Source: Clostridia bacterium
GTDB taxonomy: Bacteria > Bacillota > Clostridia > RGIG6154
Length of the DNA stretch: 64,000 nucleotides
Assembly: GCA_017410375.1 (NCBI GenBank)
Contig: JAFQQW010000058.1
Location: 9,192-73,191, forward strand
Direction of reading: 5' to 3'
Under the pieces are notes generated by a model that worked only from the letters and a program-made list of their open reading frames with translations, searched no databases and was not told the origin of the DNA. Each line of letters opens with the position of its first letter. Position 1 is the first letter of the stretch. Position numbers and translations under genes: made by a program. Positions 1-18,608 of the stretch are shown in pieces.

Positions 1-53
1 ACATAAACCTCGTCCAACATTGCCGCATATTTCTTAAATCTTTCAATTGCCAT
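1..53 (-). CDS. 5' end of a minus-strand gene running off the left edge (MAIERFKKYAAMLDEVY...), probably a phage head-morphogenesis gene
   Basis: ATG at 51-53 (minus) with GGAGG 7 nt upstream; only 17 codons visible. Confidence 0.25.
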   Translation of the reverse strand, partial: MAIERFKKYAAMLDEVY

Positions 54-120
54 ATTCATTTCCTCCATTTTCGTATTTTAATTTTTTCTTTACTTTTTGG
101 CTGATGCGCACGCCGTTCGC

Positions 121-426
121 TTACAGCCCCAATGCCCGTCTTAATCGCTCTGCCTCGGGATCGTCGCTTTCACCGCCTGCAGGACCCGTAAACTGTACCG
201 CCTGCCCCTCAAACAAATAAGGGTGCTCGGAAAACAACTTCTCCACCGATGCCTCGGGGGTCAGATCGGACATATCCTGCTCGGCTAAAATGCCCTCTGC
301 CGCCGATACCGAACGCACTGAACGGGCGCTTAAATGTGCTCTTGTCACCTCTTTGCGCACCTCGCTTAAAATCTCAGCAATCTGCGCATCCTCTAAGGCA
401 TAGCCCTCCAAAAACTGTCTGTCCAT
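121..426 (-). CDS. hypothetical small phage-associated protein (101 aa)
   Basis: ORF immediately downstream of and overlapping (ATGA) the portal-like gene; no recognisable motif. Confidence 0.4.
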   Translation of the reverse strand: MDRQFLEGYALEDAQIAEILSEVRKEVTRAHLSARSVRSVSAAEGILAEQDMSDLTPEASVEKLFSEHPYLFEGQAVQFTGPAGGESDDPEAERLRRALGL

Positions 427-1541
427 TACAACACACCTCCCTTTTCACCGTACAAATAGCTTCGTACCTCCTGCGGTGTTAAAACGCCTTTGTCTAAAAG
501 CAACAGCAAATCCGAAATTTCGTCTGTCTTTCCGGTTAAAACCGAATCGTCAAAGTGGAACACCGCCTCTGCCTTACCTTCTTCGCAAAGCCCGTACACA
601 CTTAAAATATCCTTTGTTGCCTGCAACATATCATAAAGGGCTTTTTCCAATGCCCTTTGTAATGTTTTCACAGTCGCATAGGTGCGGTGTCGCATGATTT
701 TAAGCTCGGTCGCGGTGCGTGCCGAAAGATTTGCATCCGACAGCGTTCCGCGGGACAGCGCACAGCAGTCCTCAATCCTCTGCAGAATGCAGTTTAAGCC
801 CTCTATAATGTCTTTTTGACGAAAGGCAGGCGAATAATCGCAGAACAAATCGTCCTTGCCTGTGCAAAGCAGGCGATACAGCCGTTTATCGGGAAGCTTA
901 GGCTCACCCTTTTTGTCCCTGAAAAAGGCGGTATCTGCCACATACAGCGCACGGTTTCCGCTTTCAAACTCCCAGAGCAGGCGCGAAAACTGAGCCTCTG
1001 CCTCGGAAATCAATCGGTGCGCCTTTTCGCAAAAGGGCATCCCGTCGGTGGTGGAAAAATAGCCGTAAAGCGGTGTGGTGCGATTGGGAAAACGCACTTC
1101 CGCACGGTATTGCTTCCAGTTTTCGGGCATCGTTTCCAAAATTCTGCCCTTATACATGGCAAAATTCATAACTACATACTCATTTGGCAACTGGGTATGC
1201 CGTTCCACACGCACCGTATCTCCCTGCCGTTCGTAAAACTCAACTACGGTGGGCTTGCCTGTGCTCTCATCCCGCTCTAAAATTTTGTAATCCCCGTTTT
1301 TAACTGCCATTGCCTGCATTTTACCGCCTGCAAAATAAGGCTTTAAGATGACCGAGCCATGCAGCAGCCCCTCGGTCACATGGCTTGTGATGTTTTGCAA
1401 AATGGCATTTGCCGTATCCTGCAGAGCAGGTGCGACGGTTGTTTTAAGCTCCAGGGTCGTAAGCTCTGCCACCGTTCGGGAAATACTCTCTTCCAACCGA
1501 AGCGTATTTCCCTTTTCGGATATTTTATCTGAATCCAACAT
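426..1541 (-). CDS. phage portal-like protein (about 372 aa); start moved to the ATG at 1539-1541, which follows AAAGGAGG
   Basis: Position directly after the terminase large subunit. The ORF-track N-terminus (to 1640) is translated from a copy of repeat family A and lacks an RBS. Confidence 0.45.
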   Translation of the reverse strand: MLDSDKISEKGNTLRLEESISRTVAELTTLELKTTVAPALQDTANAILQNITSHVTEGLLHGSVILKPYFAGGKMQAMAVKNGDYKILERDESTGKPTVVEFYERQGDTVRVERHTQLPNEYVVMNFAMYKGRILETMPENWKQYRAEVRFPNRTTPLYGYFSTTDGMPFCEKAHRLISEAEAQFSRLLWEFESGNRALYVADTAFFRDKKGEPKLPDKRLYRLLCTGKDDLFCDYSPAFRQKDIIEGLNCILQRIEDCCALSRGTLSDANLSARTATELKIMRHRTYATVKTLQRALEKALYDMLQATKDILSVYGLCEEGKAEAVFHFDDSVLTGKTDEISDLLLLLDKGVLTPQEVRSYLYGEKGGVL

Positions 1542-1629
1542 CTGTTCCTCCTTTCTCGCTTTTTGATCGTACGCGTCGCAACAAGCCTTCCTTTTACGCA
1601 TATGCTTTTTTATCAGGCTGTTGCTCCTT

Positions 1630-2808
1630 TTAGCCACCATAACACAAAATTGTACTCACAAAATAGCGGATGTCATCCATCGCGTGGTCTGAAACCTGCA
1701 CCACCGTATCGGTTGTGGCATCGGTGTCCCAGGCATAGGTCTCAAACTCCTTTTTTGTCGCCCTGCAGGCAGGACTGAAGCTTAAATATCCCTGCTCCAA
1801 CAGCGAGGACACCCGCCGAATGCCGTCCAGCACGCGATTTTTGGCTTTGCGCACCGAAAACCTGCCCGAGCGGCGTATCAGTTCGATAAAGGATGCCGCG
1901 GAGGGGTCAACCACCACACACGAAATGGGTCGGTCGCCCGCCAATTCCTCTAACGCCTTGTAATACTCCGCATCGGTCTTTAAGCTTTCTGTGGCTTTGC
2001 CGTCATGATAATACTCCCTGATGCGGTGGGCGTGCTTTCCCACCACCTGCCAAAGCCCCATGGAACACGGGTTTAAAGTCCCGTAATCCACCGAAATGTA
2101 GTAAGGATAGCCTGCGCGCTCTTGGACTTCCCTCACATGCTTTTCGGGGTCGAACATGGGGTACACCAACCCGGATGCAACCACCCAGTCCCCTTCCACA
2201 AACCGTTTGTAAAAGAGTCCGGTATACTCTTTTTTTAAATCGCGAATGTAGTCGGCGGGTAAAAACGTGTTGTCATCTATGTGAAACCGGACAGAAAGCA
2301 AACTTAAATCAGCACGGTCTAAATATTTTTCTTTCAGCCAGTGCCGGGGACTGTCCGGGTTGGTGGTCGCAATCAGCTTTGCGCCTTCTAAGCTCAGGCG
2401 CGAGAGCAACATGGAAAAAAAGCTTTCGGGAAGCAGAGTCAGTTCGTCTAAATAGGCACCGTACAGCGTCATACCGCGGATTTTGCTTTCCGCACCGCTG
2501 TCGCCTGCGCCCTCAAAATATACTTTGCGGTCAAACAGATTTCCGCTCTTTTTGGCAAGGGAGTATGTAAAATGATTTGCCCCTACCATGTTTTGCAGAA
2601 GCTCCAAAGCGTTTCGCTCTAAGGTATTTAAGGTTCGGCCTGCCATTAGAAAGGTGCTCCCTTTGGGCGAGGCGGCAACAAAAAACGCAAACAGAATGAG
2701 CGAAATGTAGGTCTTACCGCTGCGCACCGCCCCCTGCAGGATGTTGATACGCTTCAAGCCCCCTTGTTTGAACAGCTTTAAAAGCTCTGCCTGTTTTTCG
2801 GTTACCAT
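1630..2808 (-). CDS. phage terminase large subunit, PBSX/XtmB-like
   Basis: Walker-A GAVRSGKT near the N-terminus, ATPase then nuclease-like C-terminal half, AGGAGG RBS, followed by the portal-like gene. Confidence 0.8.
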   Translation of the reverse strand: MVTEKQAELLKLFKQGGLKRINILQGAVRSGKTYISLILFAFFVAASPKGSTFLMAGRTLNTLERNALELLQNMVGANHFTYSLAKKSGNLFDRKVYFEGAGDSGAESKIRGMTLYGAYLDELTLLPESFFSMLLSRLSLEGAKLIATTNPDSPRHWLKEKYLDRADLSLLSVRFHIDDNTFLPADYIRDLKKEYTGLFYKRFVEGDWVVASGLVYPMFDPEKHVREVQERAGYPYYISVDYGTLNPCSMGLWQVVGKHAHRIREYYHDGKATESLKTDAEYYKALEELAGDRPISCVVVDPSAASFIELIRRSGRFSVRKAKNRVLDGIRRVSSLLEQGYLSFSPACRATKKEFETYAWDTDATTDTVVQVSDHAMDDIRYFVSTILCYGG

Positions 2809-2811
2809 AGT

Positions 2812-3078
2812 TCACGCCTCCTGCATTGCCTGAATCATCTGTTCAAGCACGGTATTTTCTTCGGACTGTTCTAAACCGCAAAGCCCTAAAATTTCTTTGG
2901 CGGCAGGCACAGACCCTTTCTTTACCGCCAGTTCAAACAGCGATGCTAAGAGCAGTACACCCTTGTCCGTGCGTCGCTTTGTAAGCCCGAAATTCCGCTT
3001 TAAAAACTTGGCTTCCTCCGCCGTCACGTCCTGCCTTAACAGCAGTTCGGTCTCCTTTTTAAAATCATAGCCCTTCAT
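2812..3078 (-). CDS. hypothetical small phage protein (88 aa)
   Basis: ORF between the DNA-binding protein and terL; position would fit a small terminase-associated protein but no motif supports that. Confidence 0.35.
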   Translation of the reverse strand: MKGYDFKKETELLLRQDVTAEEAKFLKRNFGLTKRRTDKGVLLLASLFELAVKKGSVPAAKEILGLCGLEQSEENTVLEQMIQAMQEA

Positions 3079-3653
3079 TTTTTATCAATCCTTTCCGCCA
3101 GAGCCTTCACTCTTTCCCGATGCAGGATTCTTTTGGCTTCGTAGTCATTGTCCCTGCCCGAAAAATTGTTAAATTTGCTTTTTTTAGTACGCGGCGCAAA
3201 GCCGCTTGTTTTGTTATTGTTTAAATTGTTATATTTGTTATTATTGTTATATATAATAGAAGAATTTTCCTCAACGGACCCTGAGCGGACCCTCAACGGT
3301 TCCTGAGGTGGTTTCACACAGGTGATTTTGCTGTAATTTAAAAGGGTTATGAGCAGTCTGCCATTGCCACATGACTGGACCCTCACGGGACTCTCAGGAA
3401 ACTCTGACTCTAAAAAATGCAGAACTTTTTTGAGTGCCGGCTGAGAAACGGTTTGCTTTGAACCGCCTTTGCCCGATTCGCAAATCTCGCAAAGCTCTTT
3501 TTTGGTGGTGTAAAACTGTCCGCGCTCCAAGCCTGAGCCGTCCCGATATGCCGCCTTCATCAGCATATATAGATAAATTTTTAAGTAATAGGGTGGCTTT
3601 TCCCAGATTGCCGACTCCATAATGCCTCTGTCTAAGGGGACAAAACCTTCCAT
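3075..3653 (-). CDS. phage-associated winged-helix DNA-binding protein (possible terminase small subunit or replisome-organiser N-domain-like); start uncertain, alternatives at 3845 and 3950
   Basis: W..PYYLKIYLYMLMKA...G.F..T..EL helix-rich N-terminus, Asn/Lys-rich linker, basic C-terminal helix; GAAAGGA RBS 8 nt before the ATG at 3651-3653. Confidence 0.4.
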   Translation of the reverse strand: MEGFVPLDRGIMESAIWEKPPYYLKIYLYMLMKAAYRDGSGLERGQFYTTKKELCEICESGKGGSKQTVSQPALKKVLHFLESEFPESPVRVQSCGNGRLLITLLNYSKITCVKPPQEPLRVRSGSVEENSSIIYNNNNKYNNLNNNKTSGFAPRTKKSKFNNFSGRDNDYEAKRILHRERVKALAERIDKK

Positions 3654-3667
3654 ATCCCACATCCTTT

Positions 3668-3889
3668 CTAGGGTCTTAAGTAATAGACCTCTTTTAAATA
3701 GAGCCTCTCTTCTGCTTCCAGAGAGTCCAATTTCCGAAGCAGTATTGTTTCGCACATTTTGCATAAAATGCCGTTTGAGGCCGTTTTTTCGCCGCATACG
3801 CAACGTTTCGGCATAGCCTGTCTGATGTTTTCGCCTCGCATACATGTTTCCTTTTTCCTTTCTGCCGAAATGGCAATGTTTTTCGCCAT
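3668..3889 (-). CDS. possible small zinc-ribbon protein (CxC-x11-CxxC); overlaps the alternative N-terminal extension of the previous gene in another frame
   Basis: Motif KRCVCGEKTASNGILCKMCE followed by an amphipathic helix; its ATG is the terminal ATG of a family-A 28-mer repeat. Confidence 0.3.
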   Translation of the reverse strand: MAKNIAISAERKKETCMRGENIRQAMPKRCVCGEKTASNGILCKMCETILLRKLDSLEAEERLYLKEVYYLRP

Positions 3890-3934
3890 ATGCTTTTTTA
3901 TCAGGCTGTTGCTCCTCTTTCGCTCTGCGCCTCC

Positions 3935-3992
3935 AGCTACTCGCTTCCACCTCATCAGTCTCGCTTTGCTCGACAGCTTCTCCTCAAGGGGA
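3935..3992. repeat. degenerate copy of twin-palindrome repeat family B (CTTCTCCTCAAGGGGAAG)
   Basis: Same cacctcatc-[palindrome]-[CTTCCCCTCAAGGGGAAG] order as the copies at 5352, 5697 and 28855. Confidence 0.5.
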
Positions 3993-4194
3993 AGCCTTTT
4001 TTGTCATTCTGAACGAGCAACGCGAAGTGAAGAATCTCCCGTGCAGATGATTTTATACCAAAACAACCTTCGTTCGTTTCTCAGTTGCACTACGCAACAC
4101 GATCTCAAAAAAATAAGTTTCCTAGCGTACCCTTCTACCCTCTCTACAAGTTTCCTCAGTACTTTTGCTTGTTGCGTTACGCAACGAACACTTC

Positions 4195-4340
4195 AAAAAA
4201 TAAGCAAGCGGAGCTTGCGTATCGCAAAAAGTATTTCGCAGAAAACTTTTTGCGGAAACGGAGTACCAGACCGAAAAACGAAGTTGTGTTTTTCAAAACG
4301 CAACGAGTAAAAAGGTCTCGGTACGACGTGCTTAAGGTTG
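4195..4340 (+). repeat. repeat family A copy: hairpin GCAAAAAGT-ATTTCGCAGAAA-ACTTTTTGC plus a conserved 3' tail
   Basis: Homologous to 5120-5240, 5450-5560 and 16265-16395. Confidence 0.6.
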
Positions 4341-4392
4341 CTTTCGCAACCGATGCCATTATTATACCACAAAATCCCTAATTTGTCAATAG

Positions 4393-4430
4393 TTTTTGGC
4401 AAAAAAGTTGCGTTATGCAACTTTTTCTTG
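4393..4430 (+). terminator. hairpin AAAAAGTTGCGTTATGCAACTTTTT followed by a T-run
   Basis: 10-bp stem, loop GTTAT, then CTTGTTTTTT. Confidence 0.45.
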
Positions 4431-4486
4431 TTTTTTACACACTTTTTGCCTTTCGCAAAACACTCGCTTGCTTCACAATCCCTTTT

Positions 4487-4735
4487 TTAATAGAGTTTAA
4501 TTTCATATTTTTGAATCAACCGCAAAAGTTTTTCTACTTTTTCGGTGTCGTCCAGTTTTTCACTACGCACAATTTTTTCCACCTTTTCAAAAAACATATT
4601 ATACGCCTCGTTGTATATCTGCTCAAAATCCATGTTCTGCATGGTTCTCCACACCGCATCGCTGATATACGTTTTAATCATACGGTTTGTGATACTTTTC
4701 CGAAAATCTTCTTTATTAAAATACATTTCAGACAT
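4487..4735 (-). CDS. small conserved hypothetical protein (82 aa), paralog of 18609-18857
   Basis: MSEMYFNKEDFRKS...EKLDDTEKVEKLLRLIQKYEIKLY, about 50% identical to the 18609 ORF; AAGGAGG RBS 8 nt before the ATG. Confidence 0.55.
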   Translation of the reverse strand: MSEMYFNKEDFRKSITNRMIKTYISDAVWRTMQNMDFEQIYNEAYNMFFEKVEKIVRSEKLDDTEKVEKLLRLIQKYEIKLY

Positions 4736-4944
4736 TTGTTTGTCCTCCTTAAATAAAAAAAGTGCGCAGCCCGAGAGCCACGCACCAAAAAGACGCAGTG
4801 ACTCCATTCCTACGGTTGCAACACCACATAAACATCATCCCACATAACAGAGGTATGACAAGAATAGAGTGTACGCTTTTTACAAAGATAGCGTACCCTC
4901 TGTTTATGTGGTTTATGTAATTGTTTATGTAATGTTGCATGTTC
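4736..4944 (-). promoter_or_regulatory. structured 5' leader (riboswitch- or attenuator-like) of the small gene, ending in a terminator that abuts the RBS
   Basis: Long-range helix CCACATAAACAGAGG / CCTCTGTTATGTGG; conserved core GCTATCTTTGTAAAAAGCGTAC; block CTGCGTCTTTTTGGTGCG; hairpin GTGCG...CGCAC plus T7; homologous to 18414-18608. Confidence 0.35.
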
Positions 4945-4973
4945 AGTATATCATACTTTTTTTAATTTATCAA
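4945..4973 (-). promoter_or_regulatory. sigma-A-like promoter TTGATA-17-TATACT for the leader and small gene
   Basis: -35 at 4968-4973 and -10 at 4945-4950 on the minus strand with a 17-nt spacer. Confidence 0.4.
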
Positions 4974-5119
4974 CCTTTTTTAACAGGAAATTCATTTCTC
5001 TCCCTCCGTCACCGCTCTGCGGTGCCACCTCCCTCGTCAGAGGGAGGCAAAAAAGGCTCCCTTGTGTAAAGGGCGCTGTCGAACAAAGTGAGACTTAAGG
5101 GAGAGAAAATGCGAACGGA

Positions 5120-5240
5120 GTGAGCACCAGCCAAAAAGTATTACTTGTAAACTTTTTGGCTAAAAGGAGCAACAGCCTGATAAAAAAGCATATGCCGACA
5201 AGGCGTATGTGTAAAAGGAAGGCTTGTTGCGACGAGATTC
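5120..5240 (+). repeat. repeat family A copy, including the invariant 28-mer GAGCAACAGCCTGATAAAAAAGCATATG (5167-5194)
   Basis: Hairpin GCCAAAAAGT...ACTTTTTGGC; the 28-mer is identical to the copies at 1599-1626 and 3887-3914 (both in minus orientation). Confidence 0.65.
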
Positions 5241-5351
5241 TTTAGGGGTGCTGTCCAAATCTTTGATTTGGCTAACAGTCCCCTATGCAACAGCGCTCCA
5301 AATCTTTGATTTGGTTAAGCGCCACTGTCGCTATCGCTCAGATTGACACCT

Positions 5352-5440
5352 CATCCGTCAACTTACAGTTGACACCTTCCCCTCAAGGGGAAGGCTATGG
5401 ATGGTGCTGTGTTCAGGGCTGGCTTCGCATTCAGAATGCG
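5352..5440 (+). repeat. repeat family B: GTCAACTTACAGTTGAC + CCTTCCCCTCAAGGGGAAGG twin palindromes with a conserved flank
   Basis: Near-identical copy at 5697-5790; inverted copy at 28855-28910. Confidence 0.65.
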
Positions 5441-5449
5441 CGAGCGGTT

Positions 5450-5560
5450 AAGCAAAATACTTTTTGCAGGCAAGCCGAAAAGTATTTCAAAGAAAACTTT
5501 TCGGCTAAAAGGAAGAGCAACAACGAAAAGGAGCACTTTGTCGTAAGGCAAAGTGTGATA
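5450..5560 (+). repeat. repeat family A copy (hairpin CCGAAAAGT-ATTTCAAAGAAA-ACTTTTCGG)
   Basis: Same loop consensus ATTTCNNAGAAA and AAAAGGA(A)GAGCAAC tail as the other copies. Confidence 0.55.
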
Positions 5561-5696
5561 ATACCGTTGTTTGCTCTGACGCGGGGGCGCCGCGGTCGAA
5601 ACGCAGGAGCGTAAGTTCCTGTCGTTTCGGGTTACCGCAAGAGAGCTTGGTATGGCAGAAATGCTATGTGTATGCGCTTTTTCAGGCTTCGCATTC

Positions 5697-5790
5697 AGAA
5701 TGACACCTCATCCGTCAACTTACAGTTGACACCTTCCCCTCAAGGGGAAGGCTATGGATGGTGCTGTGTTCAGAGCTGGCTTTGCCTTTA
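5697..5790 (+). repeat. repeat family B, second direct copy
   Basis: About 95% identical to 5352-5440, including the GCTTCGCATTCAGAATG flank. Confidence 0.65.
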
Positions 5791-5855
5791 GAATGACAAA
5801 AAACGAAGACCTCTTTAAAAGAGGTCTTCGAAAAGCAAAATATCAAATTTAAATA

Positions 5856-7538
5856 TTATTCGCCTTCAACAGCGGCTTTCTGTGCATCGTAAGCTGCAGT
5901 CCATTCGGAGGGCTGGAGCGGAACTTCGGGAGCCGGAGCTGCACCGGATGCCTGGTTTTCGGTGATGTAAGCATTCATCTGCTCAACATATTCCTTACCA
6001 CCCTGTGCATACCATTTTTCCAATGCTGCATCGTATTCAGAAACTTCCATCTGACCTGCGCAGATCTTGGTTACAACCTGAACCAATTCGTCCTGAGCGG
6101 TGATGAACTGAGTGCTGGATGCGATTGCGGGAACGAAGCCGTTATCCAAAGAGTCAATCTGGGTAACCTGGCCAATGTGGAAGTTGTTTAAGGTAATATC
6201 TTCCATATGAGCGGTCTTTGCGGGGTCGATACCACGCAGTGCGAAGAATTCAGGGTCACCTGCTTTTCTTACGATACCGGCCGGGAATGAAGCACCTCTG
6301 CCCTGTTCGCCGGGTTCAACCTGGATGCTGGTCTTAACGCCGCCGATCATTTCATAGGTAATACCTTCAACACCGTTTGCTACCATATCCCAAACTTCGT
6401 CAGAAAGGATGTAGTCGCAAAGCTGGATGAAGTTGTTCGGTTCAGCACATGCGGTGAATACGCAGAACTGACCCCACATGGGTTTGTAGTAACCGTTACC
6501 TGCTACAATGCCGTTATCATCCTTTGCAAAGAGGTATTCAACGTAAGAACCTTCGGGGCTCTGTAAATTGTTGTTTGCTTCCATCAAAGATTTTTCATGG
6601 CTAGCGATATCGCCTACGAAACCGATACCGAGACCATATCTCTGCTGTTTGAAGTTATCGTTAACAGCGGTCTTGGTGAGGGTCGGGCCGTCCTTATCGA
6701 GATAGCCTGCCTTCTGGATTTCCTGGGTGTAAGCGAGCTGCTTCTTGAAGATGTCAGACTTCTGAGAATACTGCGGGAACATGTAATCATAGTCTTCGCC
6801 TTCGTAAGCGTACCAGCCATAGTCACCATAGAAACCACGGGTGAATTCAAAAGGACCAAACTGCTTTGTGGTATCGTCAGTCCAGCAAGAGGTAGCCAAA
6901 GTATCGTTCTTACCGTTGTTATCCGGATCGTCTTCGGTCATTCTCTTTAAGAGTTCTTTGAATTCGTCTGCAGAAACTTCATGGAATTCACGGTCGAGGT
7001 ATTCGCCAAGGCCGATGTTCTTGAGCCAGTCAGCACGAACGATGATACCTTCGTTACGGGTCAGAGATGTTCTCGGAACCGCATAGATTTTGCCGTCATC
7101 GAGGGGTTTAACGCCTTCCCAAGCGGTGGGATAGGTGTAAGCCATCAGGTTGGGGCAGTTTTCTTCGGTTAAGTATTCGTCCAGTGCTACAACCTTACCA
7201 GCTTCGCATACGTCGATGTAAGCCTGTACGGTTGTGGTCGGGAACAATGCTGCGTCCGGATATTCACCGGAAGCAATCATGAGCTGTAACTGTTCCAGAT
7301 AACCGGAACCGGATGCTGTCTGAATTTCAACTGTAACGCCGGTCTTTTCTTTAAAGCCTTCGATGATCATTTCATCGATAACGGTAGGACCTTCAGCGCT
7401 ACCAATGTTACCGAACACGGTTAAAGTGTCGGCTGCATTTTTCTTGCCGCCGTCTTTGCCGGAGCCGTCACATGCTACCAAAGAAAGTACCAGAGTAAGC
7501 GCCAGCATCAGAGCCAAGATTTTGCTTAACTTTTTCAT
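5856..7538 (-). CDS. ABC transporter extracellular solute-binding lipoprotein (family-1 sugar SBP, LplA/YtcQ-like)
   Basis: Signal peptide plus lipobox LVACDGSG; about 560-aa SBP architecture; last gene of a three-gene importer operon. Confidence 0.8.
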   Translation of the reverse strand: MKKLSKILALMLALTLVLSLVACDGSGKDGGKKNAADTLTVFGNIGSAEGPTVIDEMIIEGFKEKTGVTVEIQTASGSGYLEQLQLMIASGEYPDAALFPTTTVQAYIDVCEAGKVVALDEYLTEENCPNLMAYTYPTAWEGVKPLDDGKIYAVPRTSLTRNEGIIVRADWLKNIGLGEYLDREFHEVSADEFKELLKRMTEDDPDNNGKNDTLATSCWTDDTTKQFGPFEFTRGFYGDYGWYAYEGEDYDYMFPQYSQKSDIFKKQLAYTQEIQKAGYLDKDGPTLTKTAVNDNFKQQRYGLGIGFVGDIASHEKSLMEANNNLQSPEGSYVEYLFAKDDNGIVAGNGYYKPMWGQFCVFTACAEPNNFIQLCDYILSDEVWDMVANGVEGITYEMIGGVKTSIQVEPGEQGRGASFPAGIVRKAGDPEFFALRGIDPAKTAHMEDITLNNFHIGQVTQIDSLDNGFVPAIASSTQFITAQDELVQVVTKICAGQMEVSEYDAALEKWYAQGGKEYVEQMNAYITENQASGAAPAPEVPLQPSEWTAAYDAQKAAVEGE

Positions 7539-9682: not shown

Positions 9683-11311
9683 TTATGCCTCTTTTTTGCC
9701 AAGAGTTGCTTTGAGCACCAGAGTGGTTGCAACCATCAATACGATTGCTACGGGCAGAGCGATGAATACGTTCTGAACATAGCCTGCGATGATGAAGGAA
9801 ACAAACGATACAGCCGCAACGGTCAGCGCATAAGGCAACTGTGTGGAAACGTGGCTCACATGGTCACACTGTGCACCGGCAGAAGCCATGATGGTGGTAT
9901 CCGAAATAGGCGAGCAGTGGTCACCGCAAACCGCACCTGCGAGACATGCGGACATACCGATAATCTGCATTTCAGAGCCGTTGGGGAATACACTTACCAC
10001 AATCGGGATTAAGATACCGAAAGTACCCCAGGATGTACCTGTGGAGAATGCCAGGAAGATTGCTACCACAAAGATAACTGCGGGCAGGAGTGCCTGCAGA
10101 CCGCCTGCAACGCCACTCATAATGTCTGCTACATAGATGTCAGCACCCAAGAGAAGTGTCATGTTCTTCAAGGTGGTTGCCATGGTCAAGATAACCAGAG
10201 CAGGAACCATGGTCTTAAAGCCTGCAGTTACGCAGTCCATGCTTTCTTTGAAGTTGATGGAGCGACGGATCAGGAAATAGATTTCAATAATAACCAGCGC
10301 GATGATTGCACCTAAGGGCAAAGCAAAGGTTGCATCGGTGTTTGCAAATGCACCCGCAAAGGTTTCGCCTGCCCAGAAACCGCCGTTATACAGCATGCCC
10401 CAGATACAAGCTACAATTAAAACCACGATGGGGAAAATCAGGTCAAACATGTTGCTCTTTTTGTTCTGTGCCACCTGTTCAGCCTGTTCAGCCTTATCTG
10501 CAACAACGGTGAACAAATCGCCCTTTTCTGCGTTTGCTTCAAAGCGCTTCATAGGACCGAAGTCAAACTTGAGGCAGACAATCATAACCACGAACAAAAT
10601 GGTTAAGAGAGAATAGAAGTTGTAAGGGATTGCCTGAATGAACAGAGAAATACCGCTCACGCCATCGGGCGCAAATTCAGAAACCGCTGCTGCCCAGGAA
10701 GAAATGGGGGCAATCATACAAATCGGTGCTGCGGTTGCGTCGATTAAGAACGCAAGCTTTGCACGGGAGATTTTGTGGGTGTCGGTTACAGGTGTCATAA
10801 CAGAGCCTACGGTTAAGCAGTTAAAGTAGTCGTCTACGAAAATCAGAACACCCAAAACGAAGGTTGCAAGACCTGCACCAACCTTGGTTTTGATGTTTTT
10901 CTTTGCCCAACGACCGAATGCTGCGGAACCGCCGGATTTGTTAATCATCGCAACGATAACGCCCAGCAATACCAGGAACAGGAAGATACCTGCAGTACCG
11001 CCGATGGAATCAATCAAGCCTGCGGTCTGTGCTTCGCCGTCTACTAAAATTTCAGCGGAAAGAACCGACTGAATCGCATTAATGATGTTGAAATCTGCAT
11101 GGAACAAAGCACCAAGCACGATACCAACGAACAAAGAAGAATAAACTTCTTTTGTAATAAGTGCCAAAACAATGGCAACTACGGGCGGCACAAGAGCCCA
11201 GAAAGAATTGTAGAACTGTGCCGACTGACCTTCCACTGCCGCAAATGCAACCACGGGCATCATAATTGCAAGCAATGCAACAATCAGTGTTTTCAAACTG
11301 AATCTTTTCAT
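9683..11311 (-). CDS. nhaC: Na+/H+ antiporter NhaC family
   Basis: About 12 TM helices; NhaC-type sequence with N-terminal signal-like segment. Confidence 0.75.
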   Translation of the reverse strand: MKRFSLKTLIVALLAIMMPVVAFAAVEGQSAQFYNSFWALVPPVVAIVLALITKEVYSSLFVGIVLGALFHADFNIINAIQSVLSAEILVDGEAQTAGLIDSIGGTAGIFLFLVLLGVIVAMINKSGGSAAFGRWAKKNIKTKVGAGLATFVLGVLIFVDDYFNCLTVGSVMTPVTDTHKISRAKLAFLIDATAAPICMIAPISSWAAAVSEFAPDGVSGISLFIQAIPYNFYSLLTILFVVMIVCLKFDFGPMKRFEANAEKGDLFTVVADKAEQAEQVAQNKKSNMFDLIFPIVVLIVACIWGMLYNGGFWAGETFAGAFANTDATFALPLGAIIALVIIEIYFLIRRSINFKESMDCVTAGFKTMVPALVILTMATTLKNMTLLLGADIYVADIMSGVAGGLQALLPAVIFVVAIFLAFSTGTSWGTFGILIPIVVSVFPNGSEMQIIGMSACLAGAVCGDHCSPISDTTIMASAGAQCDHVSHVSTQLPYALTVAAVSFVSFIIAGYVQNVFIALPVAIVLMVATTLVLKATLGKKEA

Positions 11312-11332
11312 TTGTGATACTCCTCACTTATT

Positions 11333-11755
11333 TTATTCTGTAATGATGACCGTTGATGTCTCATCATTCCATTCAACATTAAGTCCGAAGCTTTCGGACA
11401 CGGCGCGCAAAGGCACCATGGTGCGTTCACCGATTAACTGCGGTGCCACATCCAACTGAATCGGTTTGTCATTAACAAACAGAGTCGGTAAATCAATCTG
11501 CATAATCACGTTTACGTCCCCTGCAAAGGCAAACACGGTCTGCGTTGCATCTTCCCAGTAAATGTTTGCACCTAAGGCTTCAAAAATAAAGCGCATGGGA
11601 ACCATTGTTCTGTCGTTTACCAACTGCGGCTGTGTGTCGGGGAACACCAGCTCCTGTCCTTTTAACACCACATGGATGGTGTCCTCTGCAAAAACGGGCA
11701 ACGCCGTTGCAAAAATCAGACTTAAGCTGAGTAACAGACAAAGCCATTTTTTCAT
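11333..11755 (-). CDS. secreted copper-amine-oxidase N-terminal-like (stalk) domain protein
   Basis: Signal peptide; two DRTMVP(M/L)R...E(A/S)(L/F)G motifs characteristic of the Cu_amine_oxidN1 domain. Confidence 0.7.
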   Translation of the reverse strand: MKKWLCLLLSLSLIFATALPVFAEDTIHVVLKGQELVFPDTQPQLVNDRTMVPMRFIFEALGANIYWEDATQTVFAFAGDVNVIMQIDLPTLFVNDKPIQLDVAPQLIGERTMVPLRAVSESFGLNVEWNDETSTVIITE

Positions 11756-15957: not shown

Positions 15958-16208
15958 CATTGCATTATAGTATAATAATTGCGACTACAGAAAAAACACT
16001 TCGTGTTTTACATTTATGCAATTATTGTACCACGGAGTGATGAAGCAAGCCGACTACGGCTTGCACTTATGGTATAATAATTGCGACCAAAGAAAAAACA
16101 CTTCGTGTTTTACATTTATGCAATTATTGTACCACGGAGTGATGAAGCAAGCCGACTACGGCTTGCACTTATGGTATAATAATTGCGACCACGGAGTGAT
16201 GACAAAAA
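15958..16208 (+). repeat. tandem direct repeat (about 2.3 x 118 bp), each unit carrying TGGTATAAT and two hairpins
   Basis: The unit TATAATAATTGCGACC...CAAGCCGACTACGGCTTGCACTTATGG recurs at about 15965, 16075 and 16183. Confidence 0.7.
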
Positions 16209-16264
16209 GGCTCCCTCTGACGAGGGAGCTGGCAAACCGCAGGTTTGTCTGAGGGAGAGATAAA

Positions 16265-16395
16265 GCGAGCTTCGCTCGCCCCTCGTGAAAAGTATTTCGA
16301 AGAAAACTTTTCACGAAAAAGGAGCAACCGACCGAAAAACGAAGTTGGGTTTGCCAAAACACAACGAGACAAACGGTCGTGTTGCGACACAAAAA
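16265..16395 (+). repeat. repeat family A copy
   Basis: Hairpin GAAAAGT-ATTTCGAAGAAA-ACTTTTC; tail AAAAGGAGCAACCGACCGAAAAACGAAGTTG...GTTGCGAC matches 4258-4340. Confidence 0.55.
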
Positions 16396-16412: not shown

Positions 16413-17453
16413 ATGGCAATCAAACACACAGGTATCAGCTATTACGGCATCAATTACGTAGAGCATGCCGAAGCAGATTTTAAAGAAATGCTTGAACACG
16501 GTGTGGACACCGTTATCCTGGCAATCACCGAATTTGACATGGATTTCTGGTTTCCCAACATCAATAACATTGTAAAAAAAGCACATGAATTAGGACTTCG
16601 AGTTATCGCAGACCCCTGGGGTATCGGCAAATATTTCGGCGGTGAGCAGGTAAGCTTGTTCTTACAGAACAACATTCATCACCGTCAGGTTTCGGCATAC
16701 ACAGGCGAAGTGTTAAACGCCGCTTGCTTTAATACCAATTCGTTCCGGGACTATTTCAAAGGCATTTGCTTAAAGCTTGCCAAAAACACCGAAGTGGACG
16801 GCTTTTTCTGGGACGAACCCCACTACGCATATCCTAAGGCTTACGCTTCCATCACAGGCGGTGCCGGAGATGACTGGGCTTGCAGATGTCCCGAATGTAT
16901 GAAAAAGTTTGAGGACTACTACGGCTATGAAATGCCCAAATTCATGAACGATGACGTAAAGCAGTTCAGATGGAGAGAAGCGCTTTACACCTTAACAGAT
17001 GTTTCCAAGGCTTTAAAGGAATACAATCCGAATTTGGAAATCACCTGCTGTGTACACGCAACCCTGAACTCGTATTATGTAACCGAGCTTCGGGGCTATG
17101 ACAACTGGGATATGGTGGCAAGCTGTCCGTATTTTGACGTATTCTCCACCACCATCATCAACTGGACCCTGCCCGAAAGCTTTTTCCGTGAAATCACCGA
17201 GCGCACCGTTGCCATGGCGAAAAAGTACGGCAAGCAGTCCGAGCGCTGGCTGATGGGCTACAACAACCGCCCTGCCGATTTTAGTCAGATTGACAAAGTG
17301 GTTGATATGTACGAAGAATTAGGCGTTGACCGCCTGGCAACCTGGACATACAGAGGCGGCTACGGCACATCGGTTGCCGCAAAGGATGCTTTAGAGCTTT
17401 GGGACAACATCGGCAGAAACTATAAGCGCGTTTTGAAAAAGGAGGACAAATAA
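16413..17453 (+). CDS. hypothetical TIM-barrel sugar-processing enzyme (GH42/clan-A-like)
   Basis: GAGAG RBS before the ATG at 16413; hydrolase-like beta/alpha periodicity; the ORF-track start at 16245 lies inside a repeat. Confidence 0.4.
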   Translation: MAIKHTGISYYGINYVEHAEADFKEMLEHGVDTVILAITEFDMDFWFPNINNIVKKAHELGLRVIADPWGIGKYFGGEQVSLFLQNNIHHRQVSAYTGEVLNAACFNTNSFRDYFKGICLKLAKNTEVDGFFWDEPHYAYPKAYASITGGAGDDWACRCPECMKKFEDYYGYEMPKFMNDDVKQFRWREALYTLTDVSKALKEYNPNLEITCCVHATLNSYYVTELRGYDNWDMVASCPYFDVFSTTIINWTLPESFFREITERTVAMAKKYGKQSERWLMGYNNRPADFSQIDKVVDMYEELGVDRLATWTYRGGYGTSVAAKDALELWDNIGRNYKRVLKKEDK

Positions 17454-18384: not shown

Positions 18385-18413
18385 TTGCTATTTGCAAAAA
18401 GATATGGTAAAAT
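18385..18413 (+). promoter_or_regulatory. sigma-A-like promoter TTGCTA-17-TAAAAT
   Basis: Hexamers at 18385-18390 and 18408-18413 with a 17-nt spacer, upstream of the structured leader. Confidence 0.4.
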
Positions 18414-18608
18414 AAATACGACCAAACACAAATGAATATTTACTTCCAAGAGAGATATGCTATCTGTAAAAAGCGTACCTCTGCTTCTGTTGTATCTCTC
18501 ATATGGAAGGATATTTTGTGTTTGGTCGCACGTAACGAAGTTGGAGCTCTGCGTTTTTTGGGTGCACACTTCGTTGTGCACTTTTTTTAATTCAAGGAGG
18601 AAAATGAT
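18414..18608 (+). promoter_or_regulatory. structured 5' leader (riboswitch- or attenuator-like) with a terminator/antiterminator, homologous to 4736-4944
   Basis: 14-bp long-range helix CGACCAAACACAAA (18417-18430) / TTTGTGTTTGGTCG (18512-18525); core GCTATCTGTAAAAAGCGTAC; ACGAAGT / ACTTCGT alternative pairing; hairpin GTGCACACTTCGTTGTGCAC plus T7 abutting AAGGAGG. Confidence 0.4.

Follow-up and report, generated by a model that had tools for sequence, protein, structure and literature searches.

The window analysed here, a stretch of 64,000 nucleotides (nt) from contig JAFQQW010000058.1 of a Clostridia bacterium (assembly GCA_017410375.1), is bacterial chromosome and not a phage genome. Its left end carries, on the minus strand, a large terminase gene (terL) of the PBSX family (1630-2808; Pfam Terminase_6N and Terminase_3), a portal gene of 371 amino acids (426-1541; gene calls on identical and related contigs, with a weak SPP1_portal match) and a zinc-ribbon gene of 57 amino acids (MRGENIRQ..., 3668-3841; gene calls in contigs L022 and L031). 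The region 3950-5850 is dense in repeats and its sole called gene encodes 82 amino acids (around 4487-4735, minus strand). From position 5856 on, the genes include an ABC transporter, a Na+/H+ antiporter, an AraC regulator and glycoside hydrolases; a search for tRNA and tmRNA genes returned none. The subject of this analysis is a repeat of this chromosome, named family A, which a preliminary description had noticed through the 28-mer GAGCAACAGCCTGATAAAAAAGCATATG. Exact copies of the 28-mer lie at 1599-1626 (minus strand), 3887-3914 (minus strand) and 5167-5194 (plus strand), as that description had reported; none was obtained in 100 shuffles, and no fourth copy exists in the window at up to three mismatches. 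The 28-mer is made up of the 5' arm of a stem (P2), the 5' half of an internal loop and the 5' arm of a second stem (P3), all belonging to a larger non-coding unit.

The family A unit and its copies in the window

The unit measures about 110 nt, is non-coding, and one of its strands folds into two hairpins. It is composed, from 5' to 3', of the hairpin P1, a purine-rich linker (AARAGGAG), a rod (P2, an A-rich internal loop and P3) and a terminal GACG. P1 (35 nt) contains 15 base pairs (bp), 11 in a lower stem and 4 in an upper stem, with a bulged A between the two stems and a triloop at the top. The upper part of P1 is constant in sequence, which suggests a possible sequence-specific contact with a protein, and its base covaries. 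The linker is found in the versions AAAAGGAG, AAACGGAG or AGAGGAG. The rod, i.e. the second hairpin (P2-P3/P4, about 65 nt, with internal loops), is closed by P2, and its inner part varies among subfamilies. The 3' tag directly follows the closing stem; its GAC is invariant (20/20 aligned copies) and the next G is conserved in at least 90% of them. In the copies of the window type (A, D, E and F, described below, and that of contig L031), P2 has 10-12 bp and a single bulged base on the 3' strand; within it lie an A-rich internal loop, symmetric and of about 9x9 nt, and a P3 measuring 8-10 bp. The fold energies of these copies correspond to z-scores of -6.4 to -8.5 relative to shuffled sequences.

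The two-hairpin fold is backed by compensatory changes. Within the window P2 covaries from copy to copy, with arms reading GCAACAGCC/GGCT-T-GTTGC in A, GCAACCGACCG/CGGTCG-T-GTTGC in F, GTACCAGACC/GGTCT-C-GGTAC in D and GAGCAACAACG/CGTTG-T-TTGCTC in E. The statistics of covariation were drawn from an alignment of 20 copies, where 91.8% of the cells are paired, versus 34-53% when the partners are slid. Changes on both sides are seen in 19 of the 40 base pairs, and none of 500 shuffles reaches the observed values. G-U pairs exceed A-C mismatches (40:14, most of the A-C cases coming from misaligned rows of the window type), and this excess designates one strand as the folding strand. Total length and geometry stay constant despite very different inner sequences among the copies. 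Conserved ends around an interior that varies, or even bears an insert, suggest that the ends are the recognised part.

A covariance model of the unit (R1) was run over the window. The larger copies announced in the preliminary description were recovered as four full copies, all on the plus strand and with 68-82 bits (4220-4333, 5127-5239, 5471-5586 and 16281-16394). One of the partial copies, B, scored weakly (19 bits) and nothing convincing was found in the remaining 48 kb. The 5' hairpin attributed to the larger copies was also found, since the pattern AAAAGTATTTCNNAGAAAACTTTT occurs three times (at 4227, 5478 and 16288) against 0.01 expected. In total, the window contains four full copies and three fragments.

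Copy A (5111-5242; R1 match 5127-5239, 68.5 bits; -44.5 kcal/mol, z -6.7) is a full unit and represents the youngest subfamily. Its P1 is CCAGCCAAAAAGT-A-TTAC/GTAA-ACTTTTTGGCT, its linker is AAAAGGAG and its P3 is GCATATGCC/GGCGTATGT; it includes the 28-mer 5167-5194 and ends with the tag GACG. A 5' extension, starting at 5111, is common to fragment G and to both A copies of contig L030 (a sister strain). Copies D (4220-4333, 81.5 bits, z -7.1) and E (5471-5586, 73.2 bits, z -8.5) are full and diverged. D, which represents a diverged subfamily, lies antisense to the genes around it. Just upstream of E (around 5453-5466) there is a piece of a P1 arm in inverted orientation. Copy F (16281-16394, 71.8 bits, z -6.4) is full and sense-oriented; 19 nt separate its end from the downstream host gene (ATG 16413, 346 amino acids, no Pfam match).

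The three fragments are all on the minus strand. Copy B (1574-1636) comprises the linker and the second hairpin, without P1, and matches A over two blocks of 47 nt (94% identical) and 35 nt (91% identical) separated by an indel. Copy C (3880-3919; 28-mer 3887-3914) retains, besides the linker, just the first (5') half of the second hairpin, over 40 nt that are 93% identical to A; it is truncated directly after GCATATG, 46 nt upstream of the zinc-ribbon start (3841). Fragment G (91-120), a seventh piece that the preliminary description did not contain, corresponds to the 5' flank of A and the first arm of P1 (27/30 identical to 5111-5140). It begins right after the stop codon of a gene of 101 amino acids (121-426), and the homologous spacer of the relative L033 is without it. 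A, B and C probably share an identical 28-mer through recent copying or homogenisation, and not through selection on an ATG or a peptide.

Gene starts and strain comparison around terL and portal

Copy B lies in the junction between terL and portal, as previously noted, i.e. between the terL stop codon (1630) and the portal gene. It had been proposed that the ATG ending each 28-mer opens an open reading frame (ORF), and the three frames are indeed open, two of them reaching real genes in frame; the called gene starts, however, lie downstream. For portal the start is ATG 1541, preceded by GAAAGGAGG and located 58 nt beyond the ATG of the 28-mer; for the zinc-ribbon gene it is ATG 3841, preceded by AAAGGAAAC and located 46 nt beyond that ATG. 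These two codons follow proper Shine-Dalgarno sequences and are the real starts. Relatives begin the two genes at the homologous codons, and in L031 (terL 85% identical) a TAG ten codons before the zinc-ribbon ATG closes the upstream frame. The AAGGAG mentioned upstream of the 28-mer ATG is present, but this nearest AGGAG is 22 nt away, which leaves no Shine-Dalgarno sequence at working distance, and the ATG itself falls within the self-complementary P3 stem GCATATGC. Copies D, E and F are devoid of any ATG, and no homologous ATG exists in the copies of other genomes.

The peptide KRKACCD, also part of the earlier reading, is in frame in two copies, but it is the mere translation of the 3' part of the repeat that they share (GTAAAAGGAAGGCTTGTTGCGAC, its 3' arm in one reading frame). 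Its frame is the same in A and B because the deletion separating them is of 15 nt. As for the invariance claimed for the 28-mer, it holds for this strain only: both A copies of L030 read CCTGAAAAAAA(A)GCATATG. Since L030 varies within it, the 28-mer is under no visible constraint. The reading as a shared start codon or a KRKACCD micro-ORF is wrong, and we expect both the peptide MPTRRMCKRKACCDEIL and an N-terminally extended portal protein to be absent from translation data. For annotation, this false lead is removed, the starts of portal and of the zinc-ribbon gene are set to 1541 and 3841, and the insertion of the repeat now provides the stop codon of terL. A leaderless-mRNA promoter within the 28-mer was rejected as well, the real starts being downstream and other members of the family having no ATG.

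Two contigs from public metagenome assemblies (L022 and L038) are identical to the window, and the sister strain L030 (GCA_054267915.1) is 98.7% identical to it. The terL-portal spacer measures 88 nt in the window and 103 nt in L030, whereas it measures 32, 36 and 36 nt, without any repeat, in L031, L032 and L033 (terL 85%, 77% and 75% identical, respectively). The whole spacer of these relatives aligns with roughly the final 33 nt of that of the window; the extra sequence is therefore the repeat, and this difference in length identifies copy B as an insertion. Copy B supplies the stop codon TAA of terL (1630-1632), inside the GGCTAAAAGGAG of the repeat, and the last residues of the terminase (...ILCYGG*) extend into it together with the stop. 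It is 91-94% identical to A, whereas the phage genes are only about 78% identical to those of L031. Its flanks (TTATGG... / ...CGTACG) contain no direct repeat, and the nearest empty sites, only 72-78% identical, are too distant to fix the exact junction.

The P3 of copy B has been lost by a 15-nt deletion between two GCATATGC repeats, while the L030 copy retains the full P3 (GCATATGCC-GATAA-GGCATATGC). The fold z-score is -1.5 in the window (not distinguishable from shuffles) versus -6.0 in L030, and copy B in the window is a decaying fragment. In L030, copy A is tandemly duplicated and neighbouring modules are present or absent. Presence or absence at orthologous sites was found for the terL-portal spacer, and the number of A copies differs between the two strains that are 98.7% identical. 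In L031, a full copy of family A is located immediately upstream of the zinc-ribbon gene, at a position like that of copy C. These comparisons show a gain at the terL-portal spacer, and a rapid decay and change in copy number between strains. Look-ups with exact proteins (the gene at 16413 and the SBP gene) gave only contigs 99.98-100% identical, and so no empty site for F or E. Distant terL relatives in IMG/VR (about 40% identity) were discarded as empty sites because they are too divergent. Several contigs of this strain or of related ones (L022, L031, L037 and L039) have an end inside or next to the repeats, which suggests that family A fragments metagenome assemblies.

The phage-like genes were also compared for their context. 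A PBSX-type terL/portal cluster beside the same Na+/H+ antiporter and Cu_amine_oxidN1 genes is found in the window (1-4000 with 9683-11755) and in L032 (252-7075). This shared context, with terL 77% identical, suggests vertical inheritance and possibly a domesticated phage-like element. The L032 cluster is truncated after the gene of 99 amino acids (PrmA comes next), and the ABC transporter operon of the window is absent there. In the window, a perfect sigma-70 promoter (4389-4361, minus strand; TTGACA-17 nt-TATAAT with TG before the -10, 12/12) faces the zinc-ribbon/terL/portal operon, and in L032 a TTGACA-17-TATAAT precedes the corresponding cluster. Downstream of the window promoter, about 28 nt from its -10 hexamer, the reverse complement of copy D starts, and a terminator-like hairpin (4218-4204, GCAAGCTCCGCTTGC with TTATTTTTTG) comes after it; promoter, copy D and hairpin could form a short leader transcript or an attenuator. 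The palindromes GTTGCRYTAYGCAAC located around this promoter (around 4086-4100 and 4172-4186, and at 4408-4422), with similar ones in L032 (around 3100-3300), look like putative repressor operators of the phage-like element. On the minus strand of 4761-4973, a promoter-like sequence (4973-4945; 10/12, TG included) precedes a long hairpin (4847-4918) and then a strong hairpin of terminator type (4786-4761). Their layout would resemble that of a small-RNA gene of some 175 nt, located immediately upstream of the 82-amino-acid gene.

Several other repeats surround family A. Just upstream of copy F, at 15965-16270, there are three tandem repeats of a 102-nt unit (97% identical); each unit has a hairpin GGTATAATAATTGC...GCAATTATTGTACC, and a related 27-mer is present at 18402-18428. 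Hairpins CCTCAAGGGGAAGSC occur at 3972-3997, 5371-5396 and 5728-5753. The module TCCAAATCTTTGATTTGG is found at 5254-5275 and 5297-5318 and also in L010, a contig from another metagenome-assembled genome (MAG), and the module GTCATTCTGA...GAAGAATCTC at 4002-4040 and also in L032. There are, in addition, a 101-nt direct repeat (5338-5438 and 5695-5795) and an inverted pair of 50-nt units (4997-5046 and 16211-16260), and some of the extra modules are present or absent between the window and L030. Finally, the GC-rich motif GGGGCGCCGCGGTC(G/A)AAAC...GGGTWACCGCAAGAG (around 5590-5650 in the window and 2975-3035 in L032) has opposite orientations relative to the phage-like genes in the two contigs, and has no match in Rfam.

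Family A in other genomes

The pattern of P1 recovered 22 matches at 21 loci in four MAGs from ruminant gut, namely Oscillospiraceae SIG556 and the Clostridia RGIG2515, RGIG2589 and RGIG5713. Sixteen full-length copies and one cut by a contig end have the standard layout, with R1 scores of 83-131 bits. The rods of these copies have a P2 of 8 bp, a P3 of 6 bp and a P4 of 11 bp, for an unchanged overall length. The remaining matches belong to a long variant or, in contig L020, to P1 with GACGAG. At this last locus (1514-1560), P1 is directly followed by GACGAG, with no linker or rod, and the copy represents either a precise deletion of the rod or an older unit, P1 plus tag, that later gained the rod.

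Family A is a multi-copy family dispersed next to unrelated housekeeping genes. Beside the copies of other genomes are, among others, genes for PcrA/UvrD, Mfd, EamA, an aquaporin, an aldehyde dehydrogenase and an alpha-amylase. At least 22 further copies lie at unrelated loci in the four other MAGs. Both orientations relative to the neighbours are about equally frequent (upstream, 12 in the same and 9 in the opposite direction; downstream, 13 and 10). Contigs L002 and L012 carry orthologous loci, 94% identical, from two species; the copy is kept in both, with 3 differences over 115 nt, and one of its changes keeps a pair as G-U.

The long variant, of 390 nt, contains a foreign insert of about 290 nt in the rod, and at least three complete copies of it are present in RGIG2515. 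These copies share P1 and the linker at the 5' end, and the closing arm and GGACGAG at the 3' end, where the boundary is sharp. Their alignment shows that a variant bearing a foreign insert was amplified with both ends intact. In contig L014 (RGIG2515), the long variant is located between terL and the P22-type portal gene of an unrelated prophage.

The units of the other genomes are nested in palindromic modules (GC-rich hairpins, and low-complexity arms inverted on both sides), some of which, e.g. TCCAAATCTTTGATTTGG, are common to the window and to other genomes. Exact matches of the hairpin number 1-10 per MAG, and the copy number looks like tens, not hundreds. In the viral contigs of IMG/VR, the 28-mer and the P1 pattern have no match, and a relaxed P1-plus-GGAG pattern gave nine loci of which none is a member according to R1 (best score 25 bits, for a P1-like hairpin only). 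The 22-mer CAGCCTGATAAAAAAGCATATG gave three matches in JGI metagenomes, which were rejected because they are the same chance match in a coding region of an unrelated organism. With Rfam 15, family A has no match at the gathering score over the whole window, and at E<=10 (3900-5900 and L014) only noise of microRNA or snoRNA type was obtained over the copies. Full-text searches of the literature gave general work on REP, REPIN and RAYT and nothing on these organisms.

Nature of the repeat and comparison with known systems

We consider it probable that family A is a non-coding, structured and interspersed chromosomal repeat of a clade of uncultured ruminant-gut Clostridia, where it would be one type of module within mosaic clusters similar to those of REP, BIME, BOX and MITE (miniature inverted-repeat transposable element) sequences. 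The copies would spread as DNA. A trans-acting enzyme may recognise the folded strand through the constant upper part of P1, the closing stem and the GACG tag, by analogy with the HUH/Y1 transposases that act at REP and at the ends of IS200/IS605. Short-tract gene conversion between nearby copies would then produce the partial patches B, C and G. The earlier proposal of a MITE-like mobile unit holds in that the element is dispersed, multi-copy and non-coding; the strict attributes of a MITE, on the other hand, are missing or not demonstrable.

Several points weigh against a repeat spreading as DNA. Neither a transposase nor a recombinase turned up: tblastn searches of 330 kb for relatives of the IS200 TnpA and of the RAYT of E. 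coli, both approximate queries, gave nothing below an E-value of 0.05, and no transposase gene adjoins any copy among the neighbours checked. The unit has no terminal inverted repeats, and no target-site duplication is seen at B. As B, C and G are partial pieces, recombination patches fit them at least as well as transposition. If the site of C is orthologous to that of the L031 copy, an old site would carry a young sequence, as expected from gene conversion, and short-tract conversion from the nearby A is a serious alternative for the three copies of the 28-mer. The invariance of P1 is inflated, since the other genomes were found by the P1 pattern. The constant geometry and length, the A-rich loops and the purine-rich linker would suit a functional RNA too. 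Lastly, two unrelated prophages (window and L014) carry a copy between terL and portal, whether by chance or not.

A functional structured RNA, which we regard as unlikely, would be a stability or processing element (substrate of a double-strand-specific RNase), a protein-binding small RNA or a leader. The module would have been duplicated into many transcripts, its fold and its GGA/GGAG segments being selected as RNA. The strong covariation, the strand-specific G-U pairs and the constancy of length despite differing inner sequence are in line with this possibility, as is the conservation of the unpaired linker and of the A-rich loops. Moreover, copies B, C, F and G and those of L014 and L031 are sense-oriented within or ahead of operons, and the L002/L012 copy, with its pair kept as G-U, differs at 3/115 positions versus 6% for the whole locus. 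However, the orientation relative to neighbouring genes is about random over the family, and A, D and E have an antisense orientation with respect to every gene that flanks them, with no sigma-70-like site on their strand in 3850-5900. Copies also decay within the lifetime of a strain (15-nt deletion in B, truncation of C and G), Rfam gives no match even at E<=10, and a foreign insert of 290 nt in the rod was tolerated and amplified. Three other candidates were rejected: a hammerhead or other self-cleaving ribozyme (no core motifs and no Rfam signal), a CsrA-type GGA decoy (dropped as pure speculation) and an operator-like GTTGCG half-site in the tails of A, B and F, which D, E and the other genomes do not have.

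Concerted evolution alone, which seems to us no likelier than an RNA function, supposes old and immobile palindromes that are overwritten from donor A by short-tract gene conversion or template switching, with no transposition today. B, C and G are indeed patches of 30-63 nt, all within 5.2 kb of A, and G replaces the first 30 nt of a spacer that has a similar length in L033. The full copy of L031 is located upstream of the zinc-ribbon gene like C, yet C is 93% identical to A. Such a process accounts poorly for a terL-portal spacer that is 52-71 nt longer than in three relatives, where sequence was added and not just overwritten. It also leaves aside the occurrence at unrelated loci in several genomes and the amplification of the composite long variant to at least three loci.

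Beyond selfish DNA, the unit might be the shape-defined substrate of an undescribed structure-specific enzyme or RNA-binding protein of these Clostridia, a proposal to which we give little credence. The shape would be defined by the constant length, the constant upper part of P1, the bulge of the closing stem, the symmetric A-rich loop and the GACG tag. It could then belong to a new hairpin-recognising recombinase system of Bacillota, or be an RNA module for processing, stability or protein titration; in the RNA version, late operons of prophages could have taken up the module, on two occasions between terL and portal. Should a cognate enzyme exist, the features that it recognises are now defined.

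Very improbable is a folded site of site-specific recombination, recognised by its shape like attC, a prophage attachment site or a packaging site. The attC sites are recognised as folded single strands and have two stems around an unpaired centre, extrahelical bases on one strand and a structure more conserved than the sequence. Family A is similar in having two stems around an unpaired region, a bulged base and a structure better conserved than its sequence. The fixed bulge of P2 and the symmetric unpaired loop between two stems are found in all copies of the window type, and copies cluster at the edge of the phage-like genes. The attC cores RYYYAAC/GTTRRRY (R''/R') are nevertheless not conserved: A, B and F show GCAAC/GTTGC, D shows GTACC/GGTAC and the copies of other genomes AAACAAA/TTTGTTT. 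In addition, no integrase, integron integrase or cassette array adjoins the copies, which occur in both orientations and next to housekeeping genes. The copies of other genomes are without the bulge, and no member of the family is present in the IMG/VR viral contigs. Least credible of all is the portable translation-initiation cassette of the preliminary description, given a distant AGGAG, a base-paired ATG that most members do not have and gene starts located downstream as in relatives.

Returning to the interspersed repeat as the preferred interpretation, family A adds a covarying and GACG/CGTC-tagged mosaic repeat from uncultured Bacillota, of which no description was found in Rfam or by full-text searches of the literature. 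Among the motifs of Rfam, Gut-1 (RF01706) is a repeated-hairpin motif of gut metagenomes, of unknown function, that differs from family A in sequence and structure. A near-threshold match to Gut-1 is present in L014 (2997-3073; 42.9 bits versus a gathering score of 50, E-value 4.6e-7), between terL and the P22-type portal gene of the RGIG2515 prophage, and adjoins the long copy of family A.

The MITE-like repeats of bacteria include Correia/NEMIS in Neisseria, BOX and RUP in Streptococcus pneumoniae, bcr1 in the Bacillus cereus group and ERIC and RU-1 in enterobacteria. Like Correia, BOX, RUP, bcr1 and ERIC, which are non-coding, multi-copy and modular elements of 100-150 nt (BOX A/B/C), family A consists of multiple copies of about 110 nt without any conserved ORF. 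It also shares with them strong predicted folds with compensatory changes, insertion between genes that are transcribed together and, in some instances, an overlap with the ends of ORFs. Unlike in MITEs, P1 at the 5' end of family A is not complementary to the closing arm and GACG at its 3' end, the hairpins being internal; no target-site duplication was seen, no parent insertion sequence was found, and partial pieces are common. The RU elements of enterobacteria are among the subjects of PMC2759123.

The closest parallel in the tag is given by the CGTC-tagged palindromic REPs, which have stems of 8-9 bp, loops of 4-5 nt and a size of 20-40 nt (PMC3733652, Di Nocera et al. 2013). This class has no known transposase of its own, and the terms 'Firmicutes' and 'Clostridi*' are both absent from the main text of that article (PMC3733652). 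Family A departs from the CGTC REPs by its hairpins of 35 and about 65 nt with internal loops, which exceed the size of a REP, and by the joining of two different hairpins through a conserved linker; its copy number, apparently tens, also differs from the hundreds of REPs. Like the CGTC REPs, it consists of intergenic imperfect palindromes with the hairpins on one strand, and has a conserved unpaired tetranucleotide at its end, GACG being CGTC on the other strand. Like REPs and BIMEs, it occurs together with other palindromic modules in mosaic clusters, in some cases head to head as at copy E.

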